NCBI GenBank assembly: GCA_018694455.1
Contig: JABHNP010000304.1
Coordinates: 1 to 42,615, forward strand
Length of the DNA: 42,615 bases
Source: Planctomycetaceae bacterium
GTDB taxonomy: Bacteria > Planctomycetota > Planctomycetia > Pirellulales > UBA1268
Direction of reading: 5' to 3'
A program made the position numbers and the translations under genes. Of this stretch, positions 2,270 to 41,978 are shown in pieces; positions within the stretch are counted from its first letter, which is position 1; each line of letters begins with the position of its first letter. Below the pieces are notes generated by a model that worked only from the letters and a program-made list of their open reading frames with translations, did not search any database and had not been told where the DNA came from.

Positions 2270-2344
2270 TGCCCACATTGTGAGACAATAGTTAGAGAGA
2301 GCACAGTTAGAAGTATCTGGTTTCAGAATCGTAGGGGAGCAAAA

Positions 2345-9134: not shown

Positions 9135-9389
9135 GTTGCTTGGGAAGGCCAGATCACGCTTTGGGTGATGGAATCGTTGAAGTGAAAGTGGTGTGGGATG
9201 TTCGTTCCTGCGATTCAGAATCCTATGATGTTGCTTCATGGTGTGGGTTTTGTGATTGCCAAACTAGAGTTTTCAGGCCATGGCGGGATATTTTTCCGTA
9301 AACGTTATTTGACGTCTTAAGCAGGAGTTGTCTGGACCAACAGTTGGGCCAACAGTGTCTAGCTGTCCCGGGCTTTCGTCTTACGGTAT

Positions 9390-13884: not shown

Positions 13885-13903
13885 CGGCTGGTCTGCTTTC
13901 TAA

Positions 13904-15205: not shown

Positions 15206-15262
15206 AAGATTTCTCCAAGTAGTAAAGTTTCTTTTTGATTCGTTGTGGCGAACGTGCCAGGA

Positions 15263-24412: not shown

Positions 24413-25672
24413 CTAGAGCTTTGAAATCTTGAGGCAGAAAAGTCTGCTTTGTGTTCTGACGACCAGAAATCCTTCAGCAACAGCTGGAGTTGCTCGACAT
24501 TCTTCGTCTACGTCACGTCTTCCTAGAACCTGAAATTCCTCACCATCAACAAGAGTCACCATTTCTCCGTCACTGGAGATATTAAGGATCTCATCTCCAA
24601 TCAGTATTGGAGATGATGAAAAGTTGCCACCAACACGTTCCTTCCATATGATGTCTCCGCGTGCCGCGTGGATACATGTTACGACGCCTTTGTCTCCCCA
24701 GAGATAGAGTCGGCCGTTGGAAAAAAGAGGCGTTGGGACATACGGTGCTGTGCTGCGAGGTATCTCATATACAATTTCGCTGGCGTCATCTTTTGTTGCG
24801 GGAGGTTTGAGGGCAACAAGAAGATTGCTTCCACCCCCTCCACTGCCACAGGTGCCTATCAGCAGATTTCCTGCGCAGACAGGTGAGCTAACGGTTCGTA
24901 GAGGAAAGCATTTATTTTCCCAGAGGACAGTCCCAGTTTGGGGGTTGATCGCATACAGGCCATGCGCTTTACTCGTACAGATAACTTGTGCTTCACTTCC
25001 TGTATGAGCCAGAACAAGTGGTGTTGAGTACGCTGCTTTGTCGGCACCGTCACGTGCGAGTCTCCAGCGAGTCTTTCCTGTTTTTGTATCGATTCCAACA
25101 ACAGTTCCCTCGGTGTCTTGCTCAAGTTGAACAATAAGAGTGTCCTTCCAGATGACCGGTGAGCTGCCGAATCCATGGTGTCCAATGAATGGCCCAAGAT
25201 CAATGCCCCAACGACGAGTCCCGTCATGGGTCAGTGCCTCAAGCCGAACATTCTCACTTGTTCCCCAAAGCCAATAGATCCCGTCGCTGTTAACTGTCAC
25301 ACTACCTGATGCGGAACTGTTTTGTTTGTGATGACGCTCAATATTTCCTGGAAAATCTTGTTGCCACAGTAGTTTGCCGGTGTGAAGTTCATGACACAAA
25401 AGATGTCGTACCTTCTGCTCTTCGTTGGCAGAGGTCAGAAACACTTTTCCGTCCCAGATAATTGGCGAGGAATGTCCGATGCCCGAAATATCCGCCTGCC
25501 ACGTCCACTCATCATTTGTCCATGACGAGGGAAGCACCTCCGTAGATGCGTAGCCAGCTCCCTTTGATCCACGAAATCGAGGCCACTGATCATGAGTATC
25601 AGCATGAAGTGCAGCACTGTGCCCAACTGCTATCCAGAGCATGAGGAATAAAGAAAAGGGGTGCAGCTTCAT
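24413..25672 (-). CDS. PQQ-like (BamB-like) beta-propeller repeat protein, exported
   Basis: Likely start is ATG 25672 (MKLHPFSLFLMLWIAVGHSAALHA). WPRFRGSKGAGY follows the signal, so this is a paralogue of 12592-13884. The track ORF extends to 25738. Confidence 0.85.
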   Translation of the reverse strand: MKLHPFSLFLMLWIAVGHSAALHADTHDQWPRFRGSKGAGYASTEVLPSSWTNDEWTWQADISGIGHSSPIIWDGKVFLTSANEEQKVRHLLCHELHTGKLLWQQDFPGNIERHHKQNSSASGSVTVNSDGIYWLWGTSENVRLEALTHDGTRRWGIDLGPFIGHHGFGSSPVIWKDTLIVQLEQDTEGTVVGIDTKTGKTRWRLARDGADKAAYSTPLVLAHTGSEAQVICTSKAHGLYAINPQTGTVLWENKCFPLRTVSSPVCAGNLLIGTCGSGGGGSNLLVALKPPATKDDASEIVYEIPRSTAPYVPTPLFSNGRLYLWGDKGVVTCIHAARGDIIWKERVGGNFSSSPILIGDEILNISSDGEMVTLVDGEEFQVLGRRDVDEECRATPAVAEGFLVVRTQSRLFCLKISKL

Positions 25673-25750
25673 AAGGGCAAGGCCTCTTGTTTTAAACTCA
25701 ATGCAACAATGTGCAGAAGACGAATGGGCACAACGCATATAACCACAACA

Positions 25751-27331
25751 TTATCGAGCGATGGGTCGTGTTCGTCCATCGTCGATCGCTTTTTGAAGTT
25801 GTGCTGTGAGAGTTTGTGCCTGATCGGTTGCTGTCTTGTAGACGTTATTTTTTTCTCCCGGATCAGTTTCGAGATTGAATAGCTGGTATTTCGGGACGTT
25901 CGTATTTGCAAGTTCCCGCTCAACGACGACATTGCGTGCTTTACCACGTTCGTGTCGTAGTAATTTCCATTTTCCAACGCGTAGTCCATAGTTTCCGTTG
26001 CTCCCATTGTCCTGCTGGATGAGGTGATCTCGTCCCTTCGCGCCTTCTTTGCCAACTAAGGCATCACTCACATCGATACTATCGAGGCAGGCATCATTAT
26101 GGATGTGATGATTCACAAGGTGGTTGAGGCTCGTCGCAAGATCAATGGTGCACACCAATTCGTCTGACACGCCTGGGCTAATAGTGCCCGGCCAGCATGT
26201 AATAAACGGCGTCCTCGTTCCTCCTTCATAAATGCTGTATTTGCCTCCTGAATAAGGGCCAGCCGCATGGTGGGCTCCATTTTTCTCAATGGCCTGGTCT
26301 TTGTAGCCATCATCGAGGACCGGGCCATTATCGCTACAAAACACAATAAGCGTGTCGTTTGTAAGCCCTTCTTCTGCCAGTGTTTTTGTTAATTCACCAA
26401 CGCACCAGTCAAGCTCAAGAACGGCGTCACCTCGTGGCCCAAGTTGTGACGTTCCCTGAAATCGCTCGTGGACAATTCGAGGAACATGGCATTCGTGTGC
26501 GGCAAAAAATAGGAAGAAGGGCTGGTTCTTTGGTCGTTCTTTTCGAATGAATTTCTTGCTTTGCTTGACCCAGGTATCTGCAAGGTCTTCATCACGAAAT
26601 CGTGCAGCGTGTCCACCTGTATAGAAACCAATGCGGCTAATCCCGTTGTGAATCGTCTGGTTGTGGCCGTGCGACCAATCCATTTTGAGCGTATCGCGTG
26701 CAGATGCGCCTGTTGGTAAATCTGGTGATGGATTTTTTTTACCAACCCACAGCGGATCACTGGGATCGAGGTTCTTCACATGATGGTCTTCAACAAAAAC
26801 TTGTGGTACGCGATCGTTTGTTGTCGGAAGAAGAAAGCATGTGTCAAAGCCGATCTCCAGAGGCCCCGGGTTGAGTTCACCGTTCCAATCGGGACCATTT
26901 GGTCCGCCTAGGCCAAGATGCCATTTGCCAACAACGGCAGTGTTGTAGCCAGCATCACGCAGTAATGAAGCAATCGTTGCTGTTCCTGGTTGTATGATCG
27001 CTGGAGCCGTCGGAGCTGCAATCCCTGTCCCTTTTTTACGAAAGGCATAGTTTCCGGTTAAGAACGAGTACCGAGTGGGTGTGCACGTTGAAGCTGAACA
27101 GTATCCGCTGGTGAATCGAAGACCTTGTTCAGCAAGAGCATCAATATTCGGTGTTGTGATTGCTGTTGCCCCATTGCAGGAGACATCGCCATAGCCAACA
27201 TCATCGCCCATGATCACAATAATATTTGGAGTTGCTGCAGTTTCGACAGCGTGTGTGTGGGCTGTGGTGAACACTGCGAGTAGTGCCACCAAACAGAGTG
27301 ATACAGTGAAAGGGGATACAAATGATTTCAT
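25751..27331 (-). CDS. Cys-type sulfatase (family S1)
   Basis: Likely start is ATG 27331 (MKSFVSPFTVSLCLVALLAVFTTAHTHA). The track extends to 27460. Motifs: TPNIIVIMGDDVGYGD and the formylglycine motif C-T-P-T-R in SASTCTPTRYSFLTGNY. Confidence 0.93.
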   Translation of the reverse strand: MKSFVSPFTVSLCLVALLAVFTTAHTHAVETAATPNIIVIMGDDVGYGDVSCNGATAITTPNIDALAEQGLRFTSGYCSASTCTPTRYSFLTGNYAFRKKGTGIAAPTAPAIIQPGTATIASLLRDAGYNTAVVGKWHLGLGGPNGPDWNGELNPGPLEIGFDTCFLLPTTNDRVPQVFVEDHHVKNLDPSDPLWVGKKNPSPDLPTGASARDTLKMDWSHGHNQTIHNGISRIGFYTGGHAARFRDEDLADTWVKQSKKFIRKERPKNQPFFLFFAAHECHVPRIVHERFQGTSQLGPRGDAVLELDWCVGELTKTLAEEGLTNDTLIVFCSDNGPVLDDGYKDQAIEKNGAHHAAGPYSGGKYSIYEGGTRTPFITCWPGTISPGVSDELVCTIDLATSLNHLVNHHIHNDACLDSIDVSDALVGKEGAKGRDHLIQQDNGSNGNYGLRVGKWKLLRHERGKARNVVVERELANTNVPKYQLFNLETDPGEKNNVYKTATDQAQTLTAQLQKAIDDGRTRPIAR

Positions 27332-27482
27332 TGATTTATCCTTACCTAAGACAACATATGGGAACTCGCAGTATCTTACATGTGATCTACCCAGTCTACA
27401 CGAGATAGTTTCAGTACCGGATTTTACAAACGGTTTCTTGACGAAATAAAGCATCAACACGACTCTGTAAAAGGGGCGTCAT

Positions 27483-30400
27483 TCATGGTGCCTTATAGAT
27501 TTTTTTCTGAATTAAGCCGGTGTAGGTCGGATCGATACATTCGGCTGTCGAGGCGTCGAGTTCTTCCTTCAGCTGAGCTACCGTCTTGGTCTTTTGAGAC
27601 ACCACGTTTTTTGTTTCACCAAGGTTATTAGCCATGATGGCGGCACGTTTAGGTGTTCGTTTTGTTTCCTGTGTTCTTGAGACCATTGTTGCTGGAAGTT
27701 TTTTTGCCGAAGTAGTAGTTGCGGCTTTGGTTTCTGAGGGAAAGTCTTCAAGAAGCTTTTCAAGGGCATGAATGGGTGAGGACGGTTTTGCATGGCGAAC
27801 GGCGGCTTTTTTGTTTGCCACATGGCTGACGATATCAACAAAGGGAACATGTGATCGGCCGGTTACGTCAACAAGCCCAACCTGATGGTTTTCACGATCT
27901 CGCCTGCCGCCAGCAGATTGATCGTTCCATTGAAACCAGTGCACGCCGACAAACTTTGGGTTTGCAAGAGCCGAAGCAAGATAGCGGGCGTATGCGAGGC
28001 CCCTCTGCCGCTGGTCCCATGCAGAGGAAAGACCAGGGCTTGGCACACCGCGATCTGCTGCTCCAATATGAAACTCACTTGCGATGATCGGGATCTCAGC
28101 ATTATCGGGAACCTGCCATGATCGAACCTCATTGTCGTACACATTGACAGAAAACACGTCTGCGTGCCCAACAGCTGCACGGCCAAGAACATTTGGACCA
28201 CGATGGCAGCGGCATCCAAGAAAAAGTGTGCCAGGGAGTGTCTTTTCAATGGCTTCTTTCGATTTTTTGAAAAACGCTTGGGCGAACTCAAAATAAAGAG
28301 GATCTATGTCTTTTGCTGCAGATGCACGATATGTGGTGTCACCATGTTGAAGAATCTGGTCCCAGTTAGAAAAAGATGCGCTCCAGGCCTCGTTCAGTTG
28401 ATTGAGTGAAGCGTATTTCTGACGGATCTGCCTTAGAACCCATTCTTTTGTTGTATCACCGTCTGGAAGTTCGAAAACAAGCTGAGAAAAACGATCCGGC
28501 CATTCAAATTCATTTCCGATAAAAATGCCAAGGCAGTAAGGGTCATCTTTTGCCCAGGAAGATTGTTTGAGTGCTTTGCATAAGTCGTTGACATAGTCGT
28601 CCCGAAATGGTGAAGGAGTTTTTTTTCCTGTAAGCCACCAGATAGAGGCGAGGAGCGTATAGGGCGTTTTTCTGTCTTTTCGGATGTCGGTACTACTCCA
28701 AGCAGCCAGCGTGTTGAGCCCCCACATTTTCATTCGATCATGAATTCCATCTCGGCTCCTTTTTTGCCAGCGGTTCCCCAAGCCGTAAAATGCGTTCAGG
28801 GCAGGAAAGTTGACGTAATTTTTGTCTCCTCGTTTAAGCATCGAGAGCCAATAGGAAGGAGCGTCTTTGGTTGGTAGGCGTTCAAAGTAATGCTCCTTAA
28901 TTCGAGTCGCAGTGACAGGTGTCATTGCTTCCGTGCCAGCAAGACATGCGCCTGTAGAAAAAAAGAGATATCCTTCCGGGTCAACAAGCCACCACTGACT
29001 GCCAACTTTTTCGGTACGGAATCTTCCAGTGGATTCGAGGTGGGGGCCATTTTTCCAGCCACCATATGTGCTGGTGTTTTGTGTGTGACCATTTGCTGCT
29101 TTGGAAAGTTCTTCGGGAAGTTCCTTTTGAAGCTGTTCACGGGAGTGAAGTTTCCCAGGCCACTCGACAGCCCGGACCTGCCCGAACTGATCAAGGTACG
29201 GAAGTTCGTGGAGTAGACGGTCCCGTTGGGGAGTTGCTTCCCACGCTGCAAAAATATCTGAAATTTCAAGGTCGACACGATCATTTGATGAGTCGATATC
29301 AAGAACAATGCTAACAATGTCAGCCGGGAAAAATTGTCGCCAGTGATGTCGGTGTCCATTTGGCTTGCCGAGTTGGTCTTTGAAAATATCCGGTCCGTCA
29401 TATTGAGGTGCTGTTATCGGAAAGACAAAGCCGACAGTTGCATGTTCATCGTGAAGGGCCACTGCAGAACCAACGCAGTGACGGCCCCATCCGAGAGGTT
29501 TGCTGTTATTGAGTCGAGCTGAGATGGTTGTGACTCCGGGGTTCTTGTTGCAGACGGGCAGGCCGAGTAACCGGTACGATGATGCATTCCACGGAGTATT
29601 GTTTTTCGGTGTAAACGAAATGGTGAAAGGAGCTTTGCCCTGAATACGCCACGTGTCTGGCCCCCTTGCTTCGACACGGACATCCTCTGGGATGTTTATG
29701 GGCTTCATCTTGAAAGTGCAAACAGGTTGAAAGAGTTCTTCTGAAGATGTTTTTCTGTCCAAAGATACTTTTCTGTGCTCAGTCGTGTTGTGATCCGGAA
29801 TTGGTTTATGCACAGTCTGGAAAATTGGTGTGCTGCGTTCACTATCAAGGATGGAGGCCAGACCACTCAGCATCATTGCAACGCGCTGCTTTTGATCCCC
29901 GCTTTCAATGAGGTCGTGCTTTTCCGCCAGATCCTCATGTAGATTAAAGAGATGAAGTGGCTTTTTTTCTTTGGTGGTAATGAGCTTCCATTGATTTTTC
30001 CGGAAAGCTTTTGCCAGTTTTTGTCCCCAGCCATCTCCATCATTCGCCTGGATGAGAAGTTCGTGTCGAAGCCGAGAGGAATCCTGCTGCAGAAGTGCTG
30101 GTAAGAAAGACTGGCTATCAAGCCCATCATGCTTTGGGTCGAGTGTTTGCCCCGTCAACTCAGCAAGCGTCGCGAAAATATCCTGGAGTCCGACAAGTGC
30201 AGATGAGGTTACCGCTTGTGCAATCGTCGAACCAGGCTGTGTTCCATCTCCCCATCGAGCAATGAGTGGAACTCTGTGACCACCTTCCCAGACTGTGGCT
30301 TTGCTTCCGCGAAGCGGTGCATTCGAGTTGTGATCAAGCCGGTGGTTTCCCGGCTTTCCTCGTGCAAGGCCGCCGTTGTCACTGGCAAATAGAATCAGCG

Positions 30401-31325: not shown

Positions 31326-31419
31326 TACAGAATTCCCCAAAGAAAAGTGAAAGGATCAAATCGTCTGTTGGCTTCTTGGAAAGCAGACGAAATTGAGAAT
31401 AGGCAATTTTGAGAATAGG

Positions 31420-32922
31420 CTAGGCTATCAGGTCGCGGAGCACATGCCCATGAACGTTCGTAAGACGTCTTTCTAATCCATTGTGATAGAAGGTAAGCCG
31501 TTCGTGATCGAGGCCCATGAGATGGAGTAGTGTGGCGTTGAAGTCATAGACTGATGCGGGGTTCTCCGCAGCCTTAAAGCCAAACTCATCACTTGTCCCA
31601 TAGCTGGTCGCTCGTTTCACACCTGCTCCAGTAAGAAAGCACGTGAATGCATCCGGGTTGTGGTCACGCCCTGTTCCATTGGCCTGAAGGAACGGCATTC
31701 GGCCAAACTCTGTCGCCCAAACGACAAGTGTGTGGTCAAGCATGCCCCGCTCCCGTAGGTCAGCCAGTAACGCGGCTGTTGGCTGATCCATAATCTCGGC
31801 CTGCATCGCGTGGGTTTTCAGAATGTTCTGGTGGGAGTCCCAGTTTGTAATGCCATTTCCACCAGAAGGATCACTGCCATTGAAAAGCTGGACAACCCGT
31901 ACGCCACGTTCAAGGAGTCGCCGGGCAAGAATACAATTCTGTGCATATGAGCCTCGTAGCTCACTTCCACCTTCAACGCCATACGACGCGAGTGTTGCTG
32001 CGGATTCTCCAGCGAGATTCATGACGTCTGGAATAGACATTTGCATGCGACCGGCAAGCTCGTAGCTGGCGATTCGTCCAGCAAGATCGGCATCACCAGG
32101 GTATTGCTCGAGATGATGTGCATTGAGTCGCTGAATAATATCACGCGTCGTCGCATCATCTTTCCCCGTAAGTTGTTCTGGACGGCCGAGGTTTTTGGGG
32201 GGGCTTGTAGCACTAAAGTCCGTGCCCTGAAACGCTGCTGGTAGAAAACCATTTCCAAAGTTGTTTTTTCCACTGCGTGCGAGTCCGCGAGGATCATTTA
32301 TGGCAACAAACGCTGGCAGGTTCTCGTTTTCGGTGCCGAGGGCATAGGTTGTCCATGCACCGAAAGACGGAAAACCCTCCATTGTAAATCCAGTGTTCAT
32401 GAAGTTCTCACCTTGAGGGTGAGCACTTGACTCGGTATGGAGAGAGTGAACGAAACAGAGTTCGTCAGTCTGTTTGGCTAAATTGGGAAGAAGGTCAGAA
32501 ACCATCTTGCCGGTTTCTCCACGTGGACGAAACTTCCAAAAGGGCTTTGCAATGTTTCCGGTTGGCCCTTCAAATGTCACATCTGGAATTCCAGGTGGCT
32601 TCTTGCCGTGAAACTTTTCGAGGGCGGGTTTGTAGTCAAAGGTGTCAACATGACTGACAGCACCAGGACAATAGATAACAAGGACTTGTTTTGCAGGCAT
32701 TGTGAAGTGAGGTTGGCGTGCTGCATATGGATCGTTGGGATCGATCTTTGGGCGAATAGGTTCTTTTCCGCCCGCAGTACGGACCGTCTCAGCCAGAAGA
32801 CCATCCCCTTGTAGCATCTGGAGAAGTGCGAGGCTGGAGGTGGAGAGCCCAGCCGTTTTGAGAAATGAGCGGCGGTCCAGGAAATGTCGACCCTGCGGCA
32901 ACAGGTGTTCAGCGTTGTTCAT
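31420..32922 (-). CDS. DUF1501 protein, Tat signal
   Basis: Motifs: LDRRSFLKTAGLSTSSLALL (twin-arginine), VIYCPGAVSHVDTFDYKP, and ATEFGRMP...GTGRDHNPDAFTCFLTGAG. The gene starts 6 nt after the upstream PSD1 stop. Confidence 0.92.
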   Translation of the reverse strand: MNNAEHLLPQGRHFLDRRSFLKTAGLSTSSLALLQMLQGDGLLAETVRTAGGKEPIRPKIDPNDPYAARQPHFTMPAKQVLVIYCPGAVSHVDTFDYKPALEKFHGKKPPGIPDVTFEGPTGNIAKPFWKFRPRGETGKMVSDLLPNLAKQTDELCFVHSLHTESSAHPQGENFMNTGFTMEGFPSFGAWTTYALGTENENLPAFVAINDPRGLARSGKNNFGNGFLPAAFQGTDFSATSPPKNLGRPEQLTGKDDATTRDIIQRLNAHHLEQYPGDADLAGRIASYELAGRMQMSIPDVMNLAGESAATLASYGVEGGSELRGSYAQNCILARRLLERGVRVVQLFNGSDPSGGNGITNWDSHQNILKTHAMQAEIMDQPTAALLADLRERGMLDHTLVVWATEFGRMPFLQANGTGRDHNPDAFTCFLTGAGVKRATSYGTSDEFGFKAAENPASVYDFNATLLHLMGLDHERLTFYHNGLERRLTNVHGHVLRDLIA

Positions 32923-32928
32923 GATGGC

Positions 32929-35754
32929 TTACTCAAGAAAGGTGAATGCATTCGAGTTAAGAATTGCTCGACACACGAGGAAAAGATCTTTTGGATTGGT
33001 GATACTCTGTACCGCCGCCTTTTCATCAGCGGTTGGCTGGCGAGCAAGAAGGAGTTCAAAACAGCGGTCGAGCGCTGCCGGTAGATTGTTATCGGTGTTT
33101 TCAAGTGATCGTTCAGCAATGAGTTTCGACTGTGACATCACAAATGGACTGTTCATTAAATTGAGTGCCTGAAGTGGTGTTGTTGAAACCGGTCGCTTCG
33201 CTCGAACCTGACCGCAGTCAGGAAAGTCAAACGCAGTAAACATGCAGTCGTCTACCCGACGCATTCGTTCCTGGTAGATCATCCGCCGCCATGTCTCTTC
33301 ACTGTAATTGTCGAGGACTTGCCACTGTGCATACCGCTTTTTGACATTATGGATTCTGTAGCTTGGGCCCCCGAGTTCTGGTCGGAGTGAATCTGAGGCA
33401 ACAAGAATGGCGTCCCGAATGACTTCAGCCTCAAGTCGCCGTGGAGGGAATCGCCAAAGGAGACTGCTTGTTCCATCAATAGAGAGAGCCTCTTCGTCGG
33501 GCTTGCTTTCCTGTGTAAAGGCACGAGAGGTGACAAGTAGCCTCAGGATATGTTTGACGGACCAAGGTCTTACTGAGTGGGCACTGGCCATTATCGTTGG
33601 TTCTGTGAATTCTGAAGCTAGCCAGTCAAGCAGTTCTGGGTGTGTTGGTTTGGCACCAGCGAAACCAAAGTCACCCGTTGTTGTGACAATGCCTTGTCCA
33701 AAGACATGATGCCACATTCGATTCACCATGACCCGAGCCGGGAGTGGGTTTGTTGGCCCTGTGAGCCAGTCGGCAAAAGCCTCTCTTCGTGCCTGGCCAG
33801 ACGCATTACTGTCGAGTTGCAAATCACCAACAAGAACAAGAGGAGCTGCTGGTGCGACTTCATCTCGCGGGTTTTCGGGACTTCCACGATGGAAGACATG
33901 TGTTGGCCCGGGGGTTTTGAATCTGCCAACAAAACTTGGCCGAGGCCCTTCCGTATTGAATTGAGCAATCAGGCGTTGAAGCTTTTGTAAGGCATCTTGT
34001 CGGAAAGAAAACTTTTTGTTGAGTTGTGAGTTTTTTTCAGATTCAGCGACAGTCTGCCACGTGCCATCCGCAGTCTGGGTTTCAATACGATATTTTGGAA
34101 AGTTGAACGGCTTCAAGTCTGTTAGGTAGTCAGTATCGAAGAAGTTCTCCCTGTTTGTGCTCAAGCGAATACGGTCGATTTCAGTTGGCTTTGTGAATTG
34201 AAACTCCAGCCAAGGATTCCCCTTTTCTCCTTGTGGTACACGCGCAGCCCACCGCTCAGTTCCGTACTCACCGTCGTTCACTTTCCAGAGCTCATTGCGT
34301 AGCACCTCCATGCCCGGTGCTGCTATTACAGTTGCACCACTTTCGGAACTGGCCACATTGTCTTGAAGATCGTGAAGACCGAAGATTTCAAGTTCATCAA
34401 GCCCGATATATCGACTGAGAAAGGTTATCCGAACAGCGTTTGTTGTTGCACTTGGGAAATGGATTTCGCCATAGCCAGCCCAGTCCTCTTGCCATGTGCC
34501 AGCATCACGAAGTCGATACCGTTGCTTTGCGATCTCTTTATTGAGTTTCTGTGCGGCTTCACGACGAGGATGGCGTTCGTCGAGTTCCGGGTAGCGGCTT
34601 CCAAATTCAACATCTTGGAATACTGCAGAAAGTGAGTAGTAGTCACGAATCGTAATTGGATCAAATTTGTGATTGTGGCAGCGGGCACACCCAATGGTCA
34701 CACCGAGAGCAGATGCACCAACGGTCTGAAGAATCTCATCCATGCGATCTGCTCGTGCCTGCCGGCGGGCAGACGGTTCTTGGCCGACAGTTGCAACAGG
34801 AACATGCGGTCCGGAGACCAAAAAGCCAGTTGCATCTCCATGACCAACCACGTCCCCAGCGATTTGCTCGGTGAGAAATTCGTTATAGGGCTTGTCTTCA
34901 TTAAATGCCCTGATGACATAATCACGATAGATCCAGGCATTTTTCCGATACATGTTACTTTCGGAGCCGTTCGTCTCAGCCCAGCGAATCACGTCAAGCC
35001 AGTGCTGTGCCCAGCGTTCACCAAAATGGGGTGATTCAAGAAGTTGTTCTATAAGTGTGATGTACGCACCGTCTGCATCTGTCTCACAGGATTTTTGAAA
35101 GCTAAGAACGTCCTCGGGTGTTGGTGGGAGGCCGGTAAGTACGATCGATGCACGGCGAATCAGGGTTGCGGGATTCGCCGGCTTTGAAAAATGGAGAGAT
35201 TTTTGACGGAGTTTTCTTAGAAGAAAAGCATCGATTGGGTTTTGCTCGTGCTCGTCTGGTACGGAAGGACAGGCAACTGGCTGAAACGACCACGGCACCT
35301 CTTCGGCAGTATAGGCTATTTTGTCATTCATTTGCCCCGGCCACTGCGCACCATCAGTGATCCACTGCCGTAAGAGTTCAATCTGCTGTTCCGGTAGCTT
35401 GTCGCCATCCGTTGGCATCGCCATGTCTGGGTCGCGATGTTCCACGACTTCAATGAGATAACTTTTTTCGGGATGTCCTGGAACAAGTGTTGGGAGTCCG
35501 TAGTCGCCACCTCTGAGCATCATTGCTCGTTTGTCTAGTCGCAGGCCAGACTCCTGCTCGTCTTCGCCGTGGCAGTGCCAGCAGTTCTCTTCGAGTATCG
35601 GCTGGATATCCTTTTCGAAATCGATGGCTGCTTCTGTGATTTGAGTTGCTTGCAGATAAAGCGTTGCCAGGCAGCACAGGAGAATAAGTCTCGCTGAACA
35701 GAAGTTGGAACGGTGTGTTGGAGCGGCGTGTTGAATCATGGTGACCTGTCTCAC
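32929..35754 (-). CDS. PSCyt1 / DUF1549 / discoidin-like / DUF1553 (PSD1) protein
   Basis: Motifs: N-terminal C-W-H-C-H (35569-35583) in ILEENCWHCHGEDEQESGLRLD (planctomycete cytochrome-c-like domain); RRASIVLTGLPPTPEDVLSF (DUF1549); CARCHNHKFDPI; an F5/8-type-C-like segment (NAVRITFLSRYIGLDELEIFG); and the C-terminal CRAILNSNAFTFLE. The start could be ATG 35739 instead. Confidence 0.92.
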   Translation of the reverse strand: MRQVTMIQHAAPTHRSNFCSARLILLCCLATLYLQATQITEAAIDFEKDIQPILEENCWHCHGEDEQESGLRLDKRAMMLRGGDYGLPTLVPGHPEKSYLIEVVEHRDPDMAMPTDGDKLPEQQIELLRQWITDGAQWPGQMNDKIAYTAEEVPWSFQPVACPSVPDEHEQNPIDAFLLRKLRQKSLHFSKPANPATLIRRASIVLTGLPPTPEDVLSFQKSCETDADGAYITLIEQLLESPHFGERWAQHWLDVIRWAETNGSESNMYRKNAWIYRDYVIRAFNEDKPYNEFLTEQIAGDVVGHGDATGFLVSGPHVPVATVGQEPSARRQARADRMDEILQTVGASALGVTIGCARCHNHKFDPITIRDYYSLSAVFQDVEFGSRYPELDERHPRREAAQKLNKEIAKQRYRLRDAGTWQEDWAGYGEIHFPSATTNAVRITFLSRYIGLDELEIFGLHDLQDNVASSESGATVIAAPGMEVLRNELWKVNDGEYGTERWAARVPQGEKGNPWLEFQFTKPTEIDRIRLSTNRENFFDTDYLTDLKPFNFPKYRIETQTADGTWQTVAESEKNSQLNKKFSFRQDALQKLQRLIAQFNTEGPRPSFVGRFKTPGPTHVFHRGSPENPRDEVAPAAPLVLVGDLQLDSNASGQARREAFADWLTGPTNPLPARVMVNRMWHHVFGQGIVTTTGDFGFAGAKPTHPELLDWLASEFTEPTIMASAHSVRPWSVKHILRLLVTSRAFTQESKPDEEALSIDGTSSLLWRFPPRRLEAEVIRDAILVASDSLRPELGGPSYRIHNVKKRYAQWQVLDNYSEETWRRMIYQERMRRVDDCMFTAFDFPDCGQVRAKRPVSTTPLQALNLMNSPFVMSQSKLIAERSLENTDNNLPAALDRCFELLLARQPTADEKAAVQSITNPKDLFLVCRAILNSNAFTFLE

Positions 35755-35806
35755 GTGATATCTTACAGAGGATCAATTTATTCTAGGCCGGTACGGCCAG
35801 ATTGCC

Positions 35807-37630
35807 TTATTGTGTGGCTTCTTCGGCAACGACTTTTTTGTGTGCTTGAAGTTCTGGCCAGCTAAGGGTTCCGTCTTTGTCCGCGTCTGCATCAGGATTC
35901 TTTTTAAAATAAAGATCTTTCCAATATTCATTACTTTTTGGTTCAGGTTTCCCGGGAGCCTTCCACTGTGGCTGTGGGGGGGCAACACCTTTTTCTGGAA
36001 GACGCGACGCAAGTGTCTGCCGGAAGCGTTGAATCCGGTCTTGATGTTTTGTTTTGGTTGCAAGGTTTTCCCATTCATTTGGGTCCGATGCAGTGTTGTA
36101 GAGCTCTTCTTTTCCGTTCTCGTAGCGAATGTATCGCCAACCACTGCTGCGAAGCGAATAGCTTTCTTTGTGTGGGTCATATTTCATCCGCCACTTGTAG
36201 AGCGCGGTGAGGGCTTCATCTGGACCCGTCCAGGTCCCGCTAGTCGGGTCCTTTAAGAGTGGCCGAAAGCTGTGACCATCGAGTGGATGCCCTTTTTCAT
36301 TTTTCATCGTGTCGCCTTCGAGGTCACAGAGGTCACAGAGTGTTGGGTAGATGTCAACGAGTGACACAGGTCGATCGCATGTTGTGTCAGCCAGAGCAAT
36401 TCCTGGGGCTCGTACAATTAACGGGATTCGTGTGCTCTCCTGCCACAGTGAATTTTTGTAGAGATAGTCTTTTTCACCCATTCCCCAGCCATGGTCGCTT
36501 GTGAGCACAATAATTGTACTGTCTTTCAGTTCGGTGGTATCAATTACATCAAGAATTCGACCAACCTGCTCATCAACAGAGGCAATGCTGGCAAGGTATG
36601 CTTGAATAAAATGCCGAAGTGCGTCATCACGCGACTCGTAAGATTCCACAAGCTTGTGGAAGAGCTTTCCGCCCATGTCTTCGGTTCGCTCGGAGTTTGG
36701 TTCCTTGCCTTCAGGAAGCCCCCGGATTGTCTGCGCGAAGGTGTCGTCGATATCACCGTCAAGAATTTCAGGCAATGAGATTTCATCCACGGGGAACATG
36801 TTAAAAAACTTCTGCGGAACAATAAGCGGCGTATGGGGCCGAATGAACCCGACACCCATAAAGAACGGTTTACGATTCTTTGCCTTTGTTGCAGCGAGTG
36901 CTCGAAGTTGTTCAACGGCCCAGTCTCCATTTTTTTCATCGGGAGTAGGATCATTTTCACCCGAGCGATGGATTTTGAGTTCGTCGACTTTCTGCCACCC
37001 GCCTGTTCTCCACATAAGCGGCCTGCCATCCTTTGTGGTTCTTCCTTCAATATTCACAAGTGGACCAAAAGAACCATCAACTGGACCAATTTCGCTATAT
37101 GGAGTGGGCGTGTCAGGATGCGGCTGATTGTCTTTCCCGTCGTAGGCGAATGGTCCGTAGTCAGCGCGATTGCCAAAGTTTTTCCATTCTCCACGAACCA
37201 TATGGTGCAGAAGCTTCCCGGTTCCCACGGTGTAGTATTTGTTCTGACGGAAATAATCCATGAGTGTTCGGGAGTTTTTCAGGACTTCATAGGTGTCCCA
37301 TTTTGTAAACCCGTAGCAGCCTGAGTTGTGCGGGTAGATGCCGGAGAACAGGCATGCCCGAGACGGACCGCAGATTGGAATGTTGCAATGTGCCTGCGTA
37401 AATCGAACGCCTGAATCAGCAAGTCTCACCATGTTCGGTGTCACTGTTTGTGGGTGTCCATTAAACCCTTCAATGTAGTCATTTAAATCATCACAAATAA
37501 TGAAGACTACATTTGGACGGTCTGTTCCGTCATTTTGTTTTGCTGCAGCCACACAGATGGTGCCCATCGCCATGACGATGGTACCGCAGGCAAACAAAAG
37601 CCACGAGTGGGTTGATACAGAGCGATGCAT
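35807..37630 (-). CDS. Cys-type sulfatase with C-terminal EF-hand loop
   Basis: ATG 37630 has GGAAGG about 6 nt upstream. The track uses TTG 37642. Motifs: RPNVVFIICDDLND and C-G-P-S-R in CNIPICGPSRACLFSG. The C-terminal DADKDGTLSWPE (35852-35887) is a canonical EF-hand loop. Confidence 0.92.
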   Translation of the reverse strand: MHRSVSTHSWLLFACGTIVMAMGTICVAAAKQNDGTDRPNVVFIICDDLNDYIEGFNGHPQTVTPNMVRLADSGVRFTQAHCNIPICGPSRACLFSGIYPHNSGCYGFTKWDTYEVLKNSRTLMDYFRQNKYYTVGTGKLLHHMVRGEWKNFGNRADYGPFAYDGKDNQPHPDTPTPYSEIGPVDGSFGPLVNIEGRTTKDGRPLMWRTGGWQKVDELKIHRSGENDPTPDEKNGDWAVEQLRALAATKAKNRKPFFMGVGFIRPHTPLIVPQKFFNMFPVDEISLPEILDGDIDDTFAQTIRGLPEGKEPNSERTEDMGGKLFHKLVESYESRDDALRHFIQAYLASIASVDEQVGRILDVIDTTELKDSTIIVLTSDHGWGMGEKDYLYKNSLWQESTRIPLIVRAPGIALADTTCDRPVSLVDIYPTLCDLCDLEGDTMKNEKGHPLDGHSFRPLLKDPTSGTWTGPDEALTALYKWRMKYDPHKESYSLRSSGWRYIRYENGKEELYNTASDPNEWENLATKTKHQDRIQRFRQTLASRLPEKGVAPPQPQWKAPGKPEPKSNEYWKDLYFKKNPDADADKDGTLSWPELQAHKKVVAEEATQ

Positions 37631-37648
37631 AAGGCCTTCCAATTATTT

Positions 37649-39406
37649 CTAGTGAACCCGTCCGACTACGTAGATGTCATGAATTTCATCAGATGACAAG
37701 GCAGCGTTCAAGATAATCATTTCGTCAATAACGCCGTCAAGGTTACGGACAGCAAAGTCCGGTGTTTTTCGGAACGGCTGCCCCCAGTTGCCAATTTCTG
37801 CAGCACCAATTTGAAGAGTATCAATGACAAACTCATTTTCAATTTTTTCCTGGCAAGTAACTGTGCCGTTTACATATTGTGTGACTAGCCGTGCTGCGGG
37901 GTCGTAGACGGCTGCAAGGTGAACCCACTGACCAGTCATGGAAGGCATCCAGACCGCATCAGAGAAGTAGACGTGGTGGAGCCCCTTGTCTTGAATTGGC
38001 GGTGAGTTTGGGCCAGTTGAATAAAAGAGTTCTTGTGAGTCGTCGACCATCACCGAAAACATAAGTTGTCCATCATGTCGAATTTGCCAGTGAGGTTCAC
38101 CGTTTTCATATCCGTCAGATAAAAACAGTGCATTGTATTTGTGCTTCAAGCTATTTATTTTTGCCCAGCAGGAAAATGTATAGGCAGAAAACGTTCCGTT
38201 AATTTTTGTCCTGATGCGGCTCCCTGGTCGACTCATAAGAACGCCAACGGATTCCTTCTCGAACCGTCCCGGAACAGTCTCGACTAAACCAAGAAGTTGC
38301 CCTGCGCTTGCAAAGTCAGTCTTGGCAATATTTGGATAGCGACGGCCAGTGAATTTTTTTTCTGCCGGAAATAATGCAATCAGTCGAGGGTCGGCAGCAA
38401 GTTCCTTCATGAAGTGGCGATATGAGGCGTGCTGTTTTTTTAAGTCGTCTCTCGATTGTTGTTCGATTGCATCGAGTTGCGGAATCCGACTGAGAAATTC
38501 GGAGTCGACCGCTTCGCGATCGAGAGAAGTCTGCTCCCCGGCCTGCAAAAGGTCGTCATCGAACTGCTTGCCCCGCAAAAGAACCTCGCCATCGATCACG
38601 GCAACCTGCGCCCTCCCTTCACTCATATCGAGCGCAAACCGTGTGCCGAGGTCAATGATGTCAGTGCCGGCAGCCTTGACAATAAACCCTTGAGCCGCTG
38701 GGGGTACTGTCGCTTCAATACGACCATTTTTTACTGAAACGGCCCAGTCAGAAATGACATCAAGTTGAGCCGGACCTTCTACAACCAGCGTTGCCCCGCA
38801 GAAAAAATCAATCACAGCGACACCGCCAGAAAATGCAAAGCCACCAGGCGGGAGGAGGCTGCCGTCAGTGATTTTTTGCTCATCGTTTGGCCATGACACA
38901 TCAATCGTCTTCCGAAGGACAGCGTGTCCTGTGAGAGTTGATTCCACTCCTCCCCAGGTCTTCTTTTTGGTAGGTGTATTCTTAGGAATAGGCGTTGTGT
39001 CAGTGTGAGTAAGGTCCGGCGTTGCGACGTATGGCTCACCGCCATTTTTGCCGATCATGTAGCCCGTCAAACCGATGAGTAAACAAATGCTCAAGGCGGC
39101 TGCCAATTGAATTCTTGGCACGAGTCTGCCTGGTTGCCTCGAAGATGAATGTGCCACCATTCTTGATGGGGAAAAGACATCCTGTGCCTGAGGGCTGGCG
39201 AAATCACGGAGCATTCTGCTTGGGAAAACCTCACAAAGTGCCGTGTGTGTTTTGTGAAGCTCGTTGTAACGCTGTTGTGCTTCTGCTGAGTTTTCCAGTA
39301 TCGAATCCAGTTTTTGTGCATCGCTGTGGCTAAGAGACTGGTCAGTCGATAAGGAGATCAGGCGATCAAGTTCAGCTGAATCAATGTTGTCACGCATGAT
39401 GTTCAC
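37649..39406 (-). CDS. Anti-sigma factor: N-terminal anti-sigma helix bundle, one TM, FecR-like domain, C-terminal LamG-like jelly-roll
   Basis: The gene starts 21 nt after the ECF sigma stop (GTG 39406 or ATG 39397). One TM segment is present (LAAALSICLLIGLTGYMIG). FecR-like segment: GVAVIDFFCGATLVVEGPAQLDV...GRIEATVP. C-terminal LamG_3-like segment: FSAYTFSCWAKINS...WVHLAAVYDPAARLVTQYVNGT...LDGVIDEMIILNAALSSDEIHDIY. Confidence 0.88.
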   Translation of the reverse strand: MNIMRDNIDSAELDRLISLSTDQSLSHSDAQKLDSILENSAEAQQRYNELHKTHTALCEVFPSRMLRDFASPQAQDVFSPSRMVAHSSSRQPGRLVPRIQLAAALSICLLIGLTGYMIGKNGGEPYVATPDLTHTDTTPIPKNTPTKKKTWGGVESTLTGHAVLRKTIDVSWPNDEQKITDGSLLPPGGFAFSGGVAVIDFFCGATLVVEGPAQLDVISDWAVSVKNGRIEATVPPAAQGFIVKAAGTDIIDLGTRFALDMSEGRAQVAVIDGEVLLRGKQFDDDLLQAGEQTSLDREAVDSEFLSRIPQLDAIEQQSRDDLKKQHASYRHFMKELAADPRLIALFPAEKKFTGRRYPNIAKTDFASAGQLLGLVETVPGRFEKESVGVLMSRPGSRIRTKINGTFSAYTFSCWAKINSLKHKYNALFLSDGYENGEPHWQIRHDGQLMFSVMVDDSQELFYSTGPNSPPIQDKGLHHVYFSDAVWMPSMTGQWVHLAAVYDPAARLVTQYVNGTVTCQEKIENEFVIDTLQIGAAEIGNWGQPFRKTPDFAVRNLDGVIDEMIILNAALSSDEIHDIYVVGRVH

Positions 39407-39427
39407 TTTTGATCGTAATGAGTTGTG

Positions 39428-39895
39428 TTATTTTTGAATTTTTCGCTGGATGCATTGTCCAAGTTTTTTTCGAATTCGTGACAATCGCATACCAATCGCA
39501 TCAAGGCTCATGTTCATTGTGGAGGCGATGGTGGCGAGTGGTATGTCTTCTCGGTATCGCTGTTCAATAAGTTTGCTTTCATCAACGTTCAGTTGCTTGA
39601 CGCAGTCCTTAAGGGCACTCACCCGCGCATCGTCATCGACTTGAGATGAATCTGTTTCGTTGTCTATCTGTTCATAGACCGTGTCAGAGAAAACTAACCG
39701 ATTTCTTGATTGGTTTTTTCTCCAGGCCATGAGTTGGAATCGAGCGATCGTAAATGTCCAGGCCTCGAAGCTCGTTCCTGGCCTGTAATCCGTAGCTTTT
39801 TGCCAGATGACAAGGTTTGTCCGCTGGAGAACTTCAAGCGTTTGGTCTCTGTCAGCAAGGCGCTTCAAAATGAATCCGTAAAGCCGAGGTTGCAT
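39428..39895 (-). CDS. ECF-type RNA polymerase sigma-70 family factor
   Basis: Region 2: LYGFILKRLADRDQTLEVLQRTNLVIWQKATDYRPGTSFEAWTFTIARFQLMAWRK. Region 4: LKDCVKQLNVDESKLIEQRYREDIPLATIASTMNMSLDAIGMRLSRIRKKL. The N-terminus looks short (see findings). Confidence 0.9.
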   Translation of the reverse strand: MQPRLYGFILKRLADRDQTLEVLQRTNLVIWQKATDYRPGTSFEAWTFTIARFQLMAWRKNQSRNRLVFSDTVYEQIDNETDSSQVDDDARVSALKDCVKQLNVDESKLIEQRYREDIPLATIASTMNMSLDAIGMRLSRIRKKLGQCIQRKIQK

Positions 39896-39995
39896 CGCCT
39901 CAAGTAATATCTCGAAATCACTTTGTTTTGAGGGTGTGTTCGTAGCAGCACCGGGGTTTTTTAGAAAAATTGCACAATAGCCGTCCTTGTAAATA

Positions 39996-40030
39996 GCAAC
40001 ACGTGCATGAAGCTAACATGCACGTGTTGC
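39996..40030 (-). terminator. Perfect 14-bp stem / 7-nt loop hairpin (terminator or operator)
   Basis: GCAACACGTGCATG (39996-40009) and CATGCACGTGTTGC (40017-40030) are exact reverse complements with loop AAGCTAA. The hairpin begins 30 nt downstream of the lipoprotein stop (40060) on the minus strand, and the minus-strand trailer is TATTTAC. It also lies ~100-135 nt upstream of the sigma ATG. Confidence 0.45.
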
Positions 40031-40059: not shown

Positions 40060-40416
40060 TTATTTCTTAAGGGGGATATGTTCGTTAAATTTCTCAGGGA
40101 CGTTAATGAGTTTAGCCATGTCACTGACAATAACTTTCATCTCTTCTTTGTCTTTTGCGCTTTTCTTCAGTTTTTTACACAACGCAATTAACGATTCTTT
40201 GTCGGATTCAGAATCAGTAAGACGATCGGCTAATTCAGAGATTTGCGATGGAACATTTTGCCCAAGTTCCTCGAGATCAAAAATTTCCTGAAGATTCGAA
40301 AGGGTATCAAGACGAATTTGGATGTTTTCCATTTCGGGCGAACCGCTCGTGCTCTCACCCGCACATCCAGAAAGAATAGCCACTCCTGCCAGAAGGGTGA
40401 TGAAATATTGCTTCAT
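40060..40416 (-). CDS. Small lipoprotein (acidic, helical), downstream of the DUF1559 gene
   Basis: ATG 40416 has AAGGA 7 nt upstream. MKQYFITLLAGVAILSGCAG carries the lipobox L-S-G-C. 118 aa. Confidence 0.75.
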   Translation of the reverse strand: MKQYFITLLAGVAILSGCAGESTSGSPEMENIQIRLDTLSNLQEIFDLEELGQNVPSQISELADRLTDSESDKESLIALCKKLKKSAKDKEEMKVIVSDMAKLINVPEKFNEHIPLKK

Positions 40417-41626: not shown

Positions 41627-41978
41627 GATGAACACTCCAGATCAATTAGGTAGAGAAACAAATTAGATAAAGAAACAAAAGATGTACGGTATAGCTTGAG
41701 CCCATCAAAAAAATTGGATGAAAAATACCAAAGCCCCAAGCCCTCGTATAAAACTAACTGTAACGCGAGACGCGGAATATCACAAGATTCGGTATTGTGA
41801 GAACTCAAGATTTAATTCGTCGCGAGGCATGAAATCGGTTTCATGCGAAGCGTTACTGGGAAAGTAATATTGATTGACTCGTTTCAGAGGTCTTTCGTTG
41901 TGGATGCTTTTTCGGCACGTCGCTGCGGGCCTTGGAAGAGGCCTGCACTAATCCCTTTTTTTCATCGCAAAACCTACC

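Follow-up and report, generated by a model that had tools for sequence, protein, structure and literature searches.

A cluster of eight genes on a 42,615-bp contig from the metagenome-assembled genome (MAG) of a Planctomycetaceae bacterium (the whole contig is called the window below) probably belongs to a widespread, self-inducing module that is specific to the Planctomycetes-Verrucomicrobia-Chlamydiae (PVC) group and forms an extracytoplasmic function (ECF) system linked to sulfated glycans. Judged from sequence comparison, the core of this module consists of a TIGR02989 ECF sigma factor, a FecR-LamG anti-sigma factor, at least one sulfatase, a dihaem PSCyt1-PSCyt2-PSD1 protein and a DUF1501 protein exported by the twin-arginine translocation (TAT) pathway. 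The initial annotation of this DNA had read the cluster as a regulated and self-contained system for the use of sulfated glycans, with a LamG sensor. The coupling of an ECF sigma/anti-sigma pair to sulfatases and to PSD1/DUF1501 stood, while the self-containment and a glycan-specific role of LamG did not. What the genes encode, their export signals and catalytic motifs, how far the module is conserved and the class-specific promoter motifs were all computed directly. The anti-sigma protein is 100% identical to locus tag HN985_09680, and the genomes closest to the window are labelled Pirellulales.

To determine how far the module is conserved, we searched a single genome from each species with an alignment of the anti-sigma factor, which yielded 80 loci from Pirellulales, Planctomycetales and Verrucomicrobiota (individual related loci are designated by L and a number). 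Open reading frames (ORFs) of the related loci were classified by phmmer against the window proteins, and presence was counted only where a locus extended for 8 kb or more on the side in question. Downstream of the anti-sigma gene, PSD1 was found in 55 of 58 loci, DUF1501 in 52/58 and a sulfatase in 53/58. The upstream flank served as background, with 7/53 loci each for PSD1 and DUF1501 (13%) and 20/53 for sulfatases (38%). The order sigma factor, anti-sigma factor, sulfatase(s), PSD1, DUF1501 was kept in approximately 90% of the 58 loci. The number of sulfatase genes between anti-sigma and PSD1 was one in 30 loci, zero in 13, two in 11 and three in a single locus, and the types of sulfatase differed from locus to locus. 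All the Pfam-labelled contexts, taken around anti-sigma homologues at 83, 64, 52, 49, 44 and 44% identity and including a Rubinisphaera brasiliensis-like contig and Rubripirellula lacrimiformis, had the five-gene order; in R. lacrimiformis the module lies at 4.43-4.45 Mb of CP036525, and in Rhodopirellula baltica SH1 the unit, at 2.803-2.813 Mb of BX119912, directly follows rpoC. The initial annotation had stated that its reading would fall if the gene association were not conserved in other genomes, and the neighbourhood comparison gave decisively the opposite result. By this comparison, the widely conserved unit is the first five genes, and the sulfatase-GH50 fusion, the S1_15 sulfatase and the propeller that follow them are lineage-specific cargo.

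The ORFs of the cluster were assigned to families with Pfam and NCBIfam profiles (Table 1), which confirmed the domains proposed earlier for all eight genes. The claim of eight same-strand genes with short gaps was likewise borne out, with coordinates, strand and gaps reproduced: the cluster runs from 39895 to 24413, entirely on the minus strand. When the gaps were recomputed with the likeliest start codons, they measured 21, 18, 52, 6, 79-94, 151 and 78 nt along the cluster. The gap between sigma and anti-sigma is 21-30 nt, depending on whether the anti-sigma factor starts at 39406 or 39397; that between anti-sigma and sulfatase 1 is 18 nt, or 6 nt with a TTG start; and that between DUF1501 and the fusion is 79-94 nt, for a fusion start at 31340 or 31325. 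No terminator-like hairpins were found in the intra-cluster gaps. A scan for generic sigma-70 promoters and terminators returned fewer sites than in shuffled sequences and was uninformative, and an Rfam scan of the whole window matched no family. All six enzyme-like proteins of the cluster have signal peptides. Co-transcription of all eight genes is plausible from this arrangement. The DUF1559 gene, the lipoprotein gene and the strong hairpin that had been described upstream of the cluster are all real.

Table 1. Coordinates of the cluster genes, the upstream genes and the candidate regulatory elements in the window
Feature	Position	Strand	Basis
Sigma factor	39428..39895 (ATG); conserved N-terminus out to 39943	-	Sigma70_r2 + r4_2, TIGR02989
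FecR/LamG anti-sigma factor, 582 aa	37649..39397 (alternative start 39406)	-	Pfam, hydropathy, AlphaFold2 (AF2) model
Sulfatase 1	35807..37630	-	Pfam Sulfatase, CGPSR, signal peptide
PSCyt1-PSCyt2-(discoidin-like, F5_F8-like)-PSD1 protein	32929..35754	-	Pfam, two CxxCH
DUF1501 protein	31420..32922	-	Pfam E 5e-144
Sulfatase-GH50 fusion, 1285 aa	27483..31325 (alternative start 31340)	-	PDB matches
Sulfatase 2, S1_15-type	25751..27331	-	PDB matches, CTPTR
Secreted PQQ_2/BamB-like beta-propeller	24413..25672	-	Pfam, NCBIfam
DUF1559/N_methyl pseudopilin-like gene	40550..41635	-	Pfam
Lipoprotein gene, LSGC lipobox	40060..40416	-	ORF and lipobox
Perfect 14-bp hairpin	39996..40030	-	Inverted-repeat/folding analysis
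P1, candidate promoter GTTAG-N15-GCTAT	39993..40017	-	Motif conservation
P2, internal exact motif core	39674..39698	-	Motif match inside sigma gene

The sigma factor of the window scored 137.5 bits against TIGR02989, the "Rhodopirellula/Verrucomicrobium" family of ECF (group 4) sigma factors (cutoff 124.55), and 36.8 bits against TIGR02985, the Bacteroides family (cutoff 126). The module sigma factors of L005 and L079 also exceed the TIGR02989 cutoff, and that of L006 falls just under it, at 123.9. Module sigma factors were split into class A and class B by their similarity to the window sigma factor, and TIGR02989 was the best-matching family for representatives of both classes. ECF57, an abundant planctomycetal group, was ruled out as the sigma group, as its members carry WD40 C-terminal extensions.

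When translated from the first in-frame ATG, GTG or TTG, the sigma factor begins with MQPRLY, and profile positions 1-10 of TIGR02989 have no counterpart in it. Adding 16 upstream codons raised its TIGR02989 score from 137.5 to 143.6 bits and moved the start of the alignment from profile position 11 to 2. In six orthologues, the differences within these 16 codons are mainly at third positions; further upstream, an indel disrupts the sigma frame in L008. The in-frame stretch upstream of the ATG at 39895 (39896..39943) contains no ATG, GTG or TTG, and the ACG at 39943..39941 is the sole near-cognate codon that is invariant in the six orthologues. Translation of the window sigma factor thus probably starts at a non-AUG codon, as these patterns suggest; alternatively, the sigma factor of the window clade may have been shortened at its N-terminus. 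In relatives from other genera, by contrast, the sigma gene opens with an ATG 9-10 nt past the promoter, as a leaderless transcript would require.

Aligning the regions upstream of sigma genes revealed a bipartite element, GTTAG-N15-nCTAT, which is conserved more widely than the hairpin that it overlaps in the window. The window and 14 of 18 class A loci have the exact core of this class A motif ahead of sigma, on the strand of that gene. Matches to it numbered 24 in 0.69 Mb of class A loci, where 2.6 were expected, and one in 1.98 Mb of class B loci, where 7.6 were expected. A second motif, GGTAA-N14-GGAAT, had 35 matches in class B loci (L005 and L016-L086) compared with 1.9 expected, and none in class A; examples lie at 7714 in L038, 7688 in L060, 3562 (-) in L075 and 7667 (-) in L079, and R. 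baltica has a variant with one mismatch. Since a motif that switches with the sigma class is a hallmark of autoregulated ECF promoters, and since a cognate anti-sigma factor is encoded alongside a promoter that comparative inference marks as group-specific, the class-specific motif upstream of sigma supports the prediction of an autoregulated operon. In the window, P1 (40017..39993) was the sole strong match to the position weight matrix (PWM) and is a candidate ECF-sigma-dependent promoter, with transcription predicted to start at approximately 39982. In nine loci, an in-frame sigma ATG lies 9-10 nt past CTAT, a spacing that would be the signature of a leaderless mRNA starting at the start codon.

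A second exact core, P2 (39698..39674), is located inside the sigma coding region, and a copy is also present in L001, L002, L007, L008 and L009. Over six orthologous sigma genes, 20% of the codons are nucleotide-invariant, compared with 14 of 15 over the P2 site. Because of this run of invariant codons, we regard P2 as a putative functional internal promoter, which would probably allow the sigma factor to drive the anti-sigma gene and the enzymes without full-length sigma; its predicted transcription start is at about 39663. Such an arrangement resembles the sigma-E-dependent rseA promoter inside E. coli rpoE.

Additional motif copies occur elsewhere in related genomes. They precede divergently transcribed sulfatase genes in L035 and L042 and the sulfatase gene immediately upstream of sigma in L038, while extra class B copies precede a sulfatase-DUF1559 unit in L075 and another PSD1/DUF1501 pair in L079. 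Copies also stand before DUF1559 genes in L003 (class A) and L060 (class B); in L003, the class A motif heads a DUF1559-lipoprotein-sigma arrangement (7744..9974). Module-type motifs are thus found upstream of DUF1559 genes in three unrelated loci (L003, L060 and L075), and the DUF1559 and lipoprotein genes are syntenic with the module in L001, L003 and L007-L009. DUF1559 proteins may be functional members of these systems. Within the window, the class A motif with at most one mismatch was under-represented (4 sites, compared with a mean of 22 for permuted motifs), and no such site was found before PSD1, the fusion, sulfatase 2, the propeller or a second PSD1/DUF1501 triad in the window.

A site with at most one mismatch to the class A motif lies at 2291..2316 (+), with a spacer one base longer than that of P1 and GTAT in place of CTAT. 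It is 28 nt 5' of the sulfatase gene at 2345..3901, which is a possible additional member of the regulon. In L004 (9011..9080), an ATG stands 9 nt past a class A motif and opens an ORF of only 15 codons, approximately 390 nt 5' of sigma, which may be a leaderless upstream ORF.

These data bear on whether the regulatory genes and the enzymes are merely juxtaposed, with the sigma/anti-sigma pair controlling itself or distant genes and the enzymes transcribed from promoters of their own. Juxtaposition would account for the position of the only two in-cluster motif copies, both at the 5' end, and for the 79-151-nt gaps before the last three genes, and gene regulation in R. baltica has been described as acting "globally rather than by operon" (PMC2754498). 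It would leave unexplained a same-strand order kept at about 90% over two phyla against a background of 13%, the 6-21-nt gaps or overlaps at the sigma/anti-sigma, anti-sigma/sulfatase and PSD1/DUF1501 junctions, the motif copies before extra sulfatase genes in other genomes, and the lack of internal terminators among the sites scanned. We consider this explanation very improbable.

The hairpin, GCAACACGTGCATG-ttagctt-CATGCACGTGTTGC, lies between the lipoprotein gene and sigma, in a 164-nt intergenic region that folds at -45.9 kcal/mol. Its arms (ACACGTGCATG / CATGCACGTGT) are identical in the window, L007, L008, L009 and L002, with divergent sequence on either side. This identity holds in the five loci though their anti-sigma identity is 64-89%, and no compensatory changes were seen. 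In L001, the promoter core is kept and the palindrome is absent. The hairpin appears terminator-like for the upstream unit and overlaps P1; it could, instead or in addition, be a palindromic operator over P1. From the stop codon of DUF1501 runs a tandem repeat whose unit is about 17 nt long (~31370..31419, -). The window and L087 have 2-3 copies, L088 and L002 have 5, and L089, L007, L008 and L001 have none. This repeat was rejected as an operator, being a variable-number tandem duplication that is absent in half of the relatives.

The anti-sigma factor matched FecR with 27 bits (cutoff 24), over residues 223-275 only, and Laminin_G_3 with an E-value of 2.6e-15. Its AF2 model (predicted local distance difference test, pLDDT, 80.9) begins with a 3-helix N-terminal domain and a transmembrane (TM) helix (~93-118), followed by a beta-domain (159-291), a long helix and finally a concanavalin-like jelly roll (339-579). 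The TM helix was also found by hydropathy (~92-117), and the architecture is of the FecR type. The Foldseek matches of the jelly roll were AbnA domain 4, a trans-sialidase lectin domain and neurotoxin Hc-N, while a sequence search of the PDB with the anti-sigma factor returned nothing usable. The family comprises 469 clusters at 50% identity (E<=1e-30). Identity was calculated for each domain, between the window anti-sigma factor and 13 distant homologues and among those homologues. It was 22% and 29%, respectively, for the cytoplasmic domain, 52% and 67% for the FecR region, and 58% and 69% for the LamG domain. FecR and LamG domains that stay conserved beside differing enzymes speak against a lectin sensor tuned to one glycan and suggest that the partner or ligand is itself conserved. 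The claim that LamG senses the glycan was thus not supported, given 52-58% identity of the LamG/FecR part while the adjacent enzymes differ, and a glycan-specific sensing role of the lectin domain is improbable. Neither a TonB-dependent receptor nor a SusC-like domain turned up among the Pfam-scanned ORFs of the window or in seven labelled related contexts.

The PSD1 protein (PSD1 Pfam E 7e-81) carries a signal peptide and two CxxCH haem-c motifs (C58, C356). The DUF1501 protein has a twin-arginine signal, DRRSFLK, and no CxPxR motif. The two genes are 6 nt apart, an arrangement that fits the DUF1501-PSCyt/PSD1 modules. Identity to the window proteins climbs along the module, the Verrucomicrobiota loci included, from 24-56% for sigma and 36-45% for anti-sigma to 53-59% for PSD1 and 70-80% for DUF1501 across orders and phyla. 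Within the PSD1 protein, the PSCyt2 and PSD1 cores are 70-95% conserved, while the discoidin-like middle (401-600) is 28-42% conserved. Searches of the PDB by sequence with DUF1501 and PSD1 returned nothing usable. The AF2 model of DUF1501 was poor (pLDDT 52; a shallow alignment of 21 sequences, mostly >=77% identical), and its Foldseek matches were all LtaS, sulfatase or YejM, with TM-scores of only 0.2-0.3. With hhalign, a single 29-residue motif was matched at a probability of 70%, and phmmer gave a weak match to an arylsulfatase (E 0.018). On this modelling, DUF1501 may tentatively be placed in the alkaline-phosphatase/sulfatase superfamily, as a member with no formylglycine motif.

The module therefore combines a constant ectodomain, PSD1 and DUF1501 with a variable sigma-binding domain, PSD1 insert and enzymes, which would suit a common machine with exchangeable specificity parts. 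This pattern fits a sensor that reads a conserved partner or product, as far as sequence conservation can indicate, and fits a glycan-tuned lectin less well. In a bolder reading, which we think less likely than not, the FecR-LamG anti-sigma factor would have the PSD1/DUF1501 pair as its partner for signalling in the periplasm, in a PVC-specific glycan-sensing device that has no TonB-dependent receptor. If this were true, PSD1/DUF1501 would take the role of the SusC-like or FecA transducers, specificity would be set by the discoidin insert of PSD1 and the module's own sulfatase, and ECF-linked PSD1/DUF1501 proteins would be components of signal transduction and processing and not respiratory or "compartment" proteins.

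A different division of labour would have the LamG domain bind a glycan fragment directly and PSD1/DUF1501 act purely as an enzyme pair, for example in a cytochrome-linked oxidative or hydrolytic step on sulfated sugars, with no part in signalling. The LamG fold does match carbohydrate-binding jelly rolls, but the domain is 58-69% identical across modules with differing enzymes, and a ligand-specific lectin should vary. As to the enzyme pair, PSCyt genes have been proposed to "mirror" the functions of glycoside hydrolases (GHs) on imported oligomers (PMC5615132), and DUF1501 combines a TAT signal with a sulfatase-like motif; against this, DUF1501 is, at 70-80% identity between phyla, far more constrained than the neighbouring sulfatases. 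We regard this division of labour as rather unlikely.

All three sulfatases of the cluster matched PF00884 (E 1e-43 to 1e-53) and kept the Cys-type C-x-P-x-R motif, as CGPSR in sulfatase 1, CAPSR in the fusion and CTPTR in sulfatase 2. The earlier count of three sulfatases was therefore correct, and all of them are exported by a signal peptide. No sulfatase maturation enzyme, whether a formylglycine-generating enzyme (FGE) or an anaerobic sulfatase-maturating enzyme (anSME), was identified in the window. The best PDB matches of sulfatase 1 were 6hhm and iduronate-2-sulfatase (E 1e-38 to 1e-32), which we take to belong to S1_7, and gave no clear subfamily; its orthologues in the same position were confined to close relatives, L024 and L081.

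Sulfatase 2 is, by homology, an unambiguous relative of S1_15, the Gal/GalNAc-6-O-sulfatase type. Its PDB matches included 7oze (4.5e-146), the GalNAc-6-O-sulfatase 6s20 (2.7e-135) and S1_15B (9bau, 1e-125); the top 8 matches ranged from E 1e-120 to 4.5e-146, and the next best, arylsulfatase A, was at 1e-55. In the Foldseek listing, S1_15B is described as a lambda-carrageenan-specific sulfatase crystallised with galactose-6-sulfate.

The fusion protein contains a GH50 domain of about 480 residues in its C-terminal half (~29234..27816), for which Pfam alone gave only a sub-threshold match to GH42. In phmmer searches, this domain matched four beta-agarase structures (5z6p, 4bq2/4bq4, 6xj9) with E 4.7e-58 to 1.5e-54 and BpGH50 (5t3b) with E 1.8e-11; the alignment also takes in the N-terminal portion of the GH50 fold. 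Its GNE and SEFH motifs align with the agarase DNE (acid/base) and GEFH (nucleophile) motifs, so that both catalytic Glu motifs are intact and the domain is, by homology, a member of GH50. The "GH-A barrel" for backbone cleavage in the initial annotation was thus refined to a GH50 enzyme with its catalytic motifs, whose activity is predicted. The chains nearest to the N-terminal sulfatase of the fusion were S1_15A and S1_15B (E ~1e-50).

The cargo is restricted to close relatives. The fusion follows DUF1501 only in L001-L004, L007, L008 and L087-L093; sulfatase 2 is kept after the fusion gene in L087-L090; and L087-L089 have the fusion, the S1_15 sulfatase and the propeller in this same order, with 78-98% identity over the GH50-region query. 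In L088-L092, the fusion protein is 1670-1750 aa long and has a third, C-terminal sulfatase domain, while in the window and L087 it ends at ~1285 aa with a low-complexity tail (27483..27900 in the window). The C-terminal sulfatase domain thus appears to have been lost recently in the window and L087. For the "PQQ propeller" of the initial annotation, the propeller fold was upheld, with PQQ_2/BamB-like repeat models as the best matches, while a PQQ dehydrogenase was not (TIGR03075: 31 bits, cutoff 480). A true PQQ dehydrogenase feeding the cytochrome was ruled out by this score and by the absence of the propeller from the conserved core.

By homology, these enzymes suggest a 6-O-sulfated beta-galactan of the agar/porphyran type as the substrate. 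A sulfated-glycan role must be weighed against an envelope or surface-homeostasis circuit, in which the signal would come from the cell's own sulfated exopolymer or glycoproteins, or from stress, with the sulfatases and PSD1/DUF1501 as effectors and the GH50 and S1_15 genes recruited nearby. ECF sigma factors classically serve envelope stress, and the near-invariant ectodomain and PSD1/DUF1501 are what a generic signal would lead one to expect. In R. baltica, heat, cold or salt elicited a response from ECF genes and from 11 sulfatase genes in the absence of sulfated polysaccharide (PMC2754498). That paper (Wecker et al. 2009) also reports that the ECF gene RB10049 is stress-induced and cites Studholme et al. 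2004 for the suggestion that it regulates RB10051, which would be an ECF-PSD1/PSC2 link. The nature of the variable parts speaks against such a circuit: the changing partners are carbohydrate sulfatases and GHs (GH50 here, GH16 in L006), the S1_15 homologues with known structures act on Gal/GalNAc-6-sulfate, the middle domain of PSD1 is lectin-like and variable, and sulfatases and glycan-active candidates abound around the cluster. We judge an envelope circuit to be distinctly unlikely.

The self-inducing, sulfated-glycan-linked module that we favour would operate as follows. At rest, the cytoplasmic N-terminal domain of the anti-sigma factor would hold sigma at the inner membrane. The conserved FecR/LamG ectodomain would detect a periplasmic signal derived from a sulfated glycan, most likely through an equally conserved PSD1/DUF1501 complex, with specificity set by the variable discoidin-like insert and the variable module sulfatases. 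The signal would release sigma, which would transcribe the whole same-strand gene set from P1 and would also use the internal P2 to yield the anti-sigma factor and the enzymes without full-length sigma. Once exported, the S1_15-type sulfatases would remove 6-O-sulfate, and the GH50 enzyme would hydrolyse oligosaccharides of the beta-galactan/agar type. In this scheme we infer the co-transcription, the inducing signal, the substrate (a 6-sulfated agar/porphyran-like galactan) and the contact of the anti-sigma factor with PSD1/DUF1501.

Several points weigh against this scheme. No GH117, GH16 or GH86 gene, transporter, cytoplasmic catabolic gene or anhydro-galactose pathway gene is present within the cluster; lacking a transporter and cytoplasmic catabolic genes, the cluster cannot be called self-contained. 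Homology to GH50 is not proof of agarase activity. The in-cluster motif copies are P1 and P2 only, transcription over 15.5 kb from them is an assumption, and independent promoters of an unrecognised kind could lie in the gaps of 79-151 nt that precede the last three genes. The fold proposed for DUF1501 depends on a poor model and weak profile matches. The conserved N-terminus of sigma has no canonical start codon, and the level or activity of the protein may be unusual. Finally, several near-identical PSD1/DUF1501/LamG sets occur in one genome (L025, L043; also two DUF1501 matches in Rhodopirellula europaea), and the specificity of the signal is then hard to explain.

A second triad is encoded elsewhere in the window (12592..18181, -), consisting of a PSCyt2/PSD1 protein (972 aa, with no PSCyt1 match), a DUF1501 protein (433 aa) and a PQQ_2 propeller (430 aa). 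It has no sigma/anti-sigma pair alongside and is 26-32% identical to the ECF-linked set; the two DUF1501 proteins are 30% identical, the two PSD1 proteins 26-32% and the two propellers 26%. In this genome, PSD1/DUF1501 pairs may thus repeatedly have a propeller as their third member. Further glycan-related candidates surround the cluster (5967..9134, +, and 18412..24121, +). They are a 1055-aa ORF with a distant GH16-like domain, two further sulfatases (2345..3901 and 18412..20121), a BD-FAE esterase with an EF-hand, a lactonase-type propeller and a NosD/beta-helix protein with no relative in the PDB.

Among the major degraders of sulfated algal glycans are Planctomycetes and Verrucomicrobia, which to our knowledge do without the SusC/D logic by which the loci of Bacteroidota can be read. 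PSCyt/PSD1 and DUF1501 genes occur in dozens of copies per genome, and their function has been unexplained since 2004-2012. One PSD1/DUF1501 subfamily, 70-80% identical between phyla, is now tied to a dedicated ECF switch. The two predicted promoter motifs and the variable sulfatase/GH cargo make the PSD1/DUF1501 puzzle experimentally testable, and the module is also present in the model strain R. baltica SH1. For the window itself, the prediction is that an uncultured marine lineage of Pirellulales has an inducible route for agar/porphyran-like galactans that removes 6-O-sulfate and depends on GH50.

The likeness of the module to the polysaccharide utilization loci (PULs) of Bacteroidota has limits. 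ECF-controlled PULs, such as the host-glycan PULs of Bacteroides thetaiotaomicron (ECF10/ECF240), likewise place an ECF sigma factor and a single-pass FecR-type anti-sigma factor beside exported glycan enzymes that include sulfatases, and in them, too, a conserved protein pair recurs with variable enzymes, in several paralogous loci per genome. The module of the window differs in having neither a SusC/SusD pair nor a TonB-dependent transducer. Its sigma factor belongs to TIGR02989 and not to TIGR02985, its anti-sigma factor ends in a LamG jelly roll, and its recurring pair is a soluble, exported PSD1 and DUF1501 and not an outer-membrane transporter. The reclassification of ECF sigma factors (PMC7826278) describes ECF240 as FecR-linked, carbohydrate-associated and found in Bacteroidetes. 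Of the PUL parallel drawn in the initial annotation, a regulator pair with a conserved partner pair remains, and SusC/SusD is absent. By analogy, the module is PUL-like only loosely, as a regulator and a conserved pair with variable carbohydrate-active enzymes (CAZymes) and sulfatases.

With the E. coli FecI-FecR-FecA system, the module shares a cytoplasmic sigma-binding N-terminal domain, one TM helix and a periplasmic domain. Conservation of the window anti-sigma factor is higher in its periplasmic than in its cytoplasmic part, as one would expect if it touched a protein partner. Unlike the Fec system, the module has no FecA-like receptor, its targets are sulfatases and a GH instead of an iron transporter, and a LamG domain is added. 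Its sigma gene is itself downstream of a sigma-type promoter, with a leaderless mRNA predicted in many relatives.

The enzymes have close counterparts with known structures. The GH50 domain keeps both catalytic motifs of the exo-beta-agarases (Aga50D of Saccharophagus degradans, 4bq2; 5z6p) and of BpGH50 from the porphyran PUL of Bacteroides plebeius (5t3b), but in the window it is fused to an N-terminal S1 sulfatase within a planctomycete ECF module. Sulfatase 2 matches the S1_15 sulfatases (BT3333, 6s20; lambda-carrageenan S1_15A/B, 9bas/9bau) over its full length, with a Cys-type motif, while the fusion sulfatase is much more distant from them (E 1e-50).

Finally, a TAT-exported DUF1501 adjoining a PSCyt1/PSCyt2/PSD1 protein with an F5_F8_type_C insert is a published architecture. 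Kamneva et al. 2012 (PMC3542564) described DUF1501-PSCyt/PSD1 modules, their TAT signals and the F5_F8_type_C variant in Planctomycetes, Verrucomicrobia and Lentisphaerae, and speculated on a link with electron transport and internal membranes. Sulfatases next to PSCyt genes were remarked on by He et al. 2017 (PMC5615132), who suggested a carbohydrate role. These accounts give no function for the DUF1501-PSCyt/PSD1 modules, and the word "sigma" is absent from the main text of both papers. In the literature covered, we came across no earlier description of the five-gene unit, of its two promoter motifs, of the conservation gradient or of how extremely conserved this DUF1501/PSD1 subfamily is, although a description of an ECF group may mention the gene context. 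In conclusion, the cluster appears to combine two known kinds of system, ECF-controlled glycan loci and DUF1501-PSCyt/PSD1 modules, in a five-gene unit that, like its promoter motifs, seems to be new.

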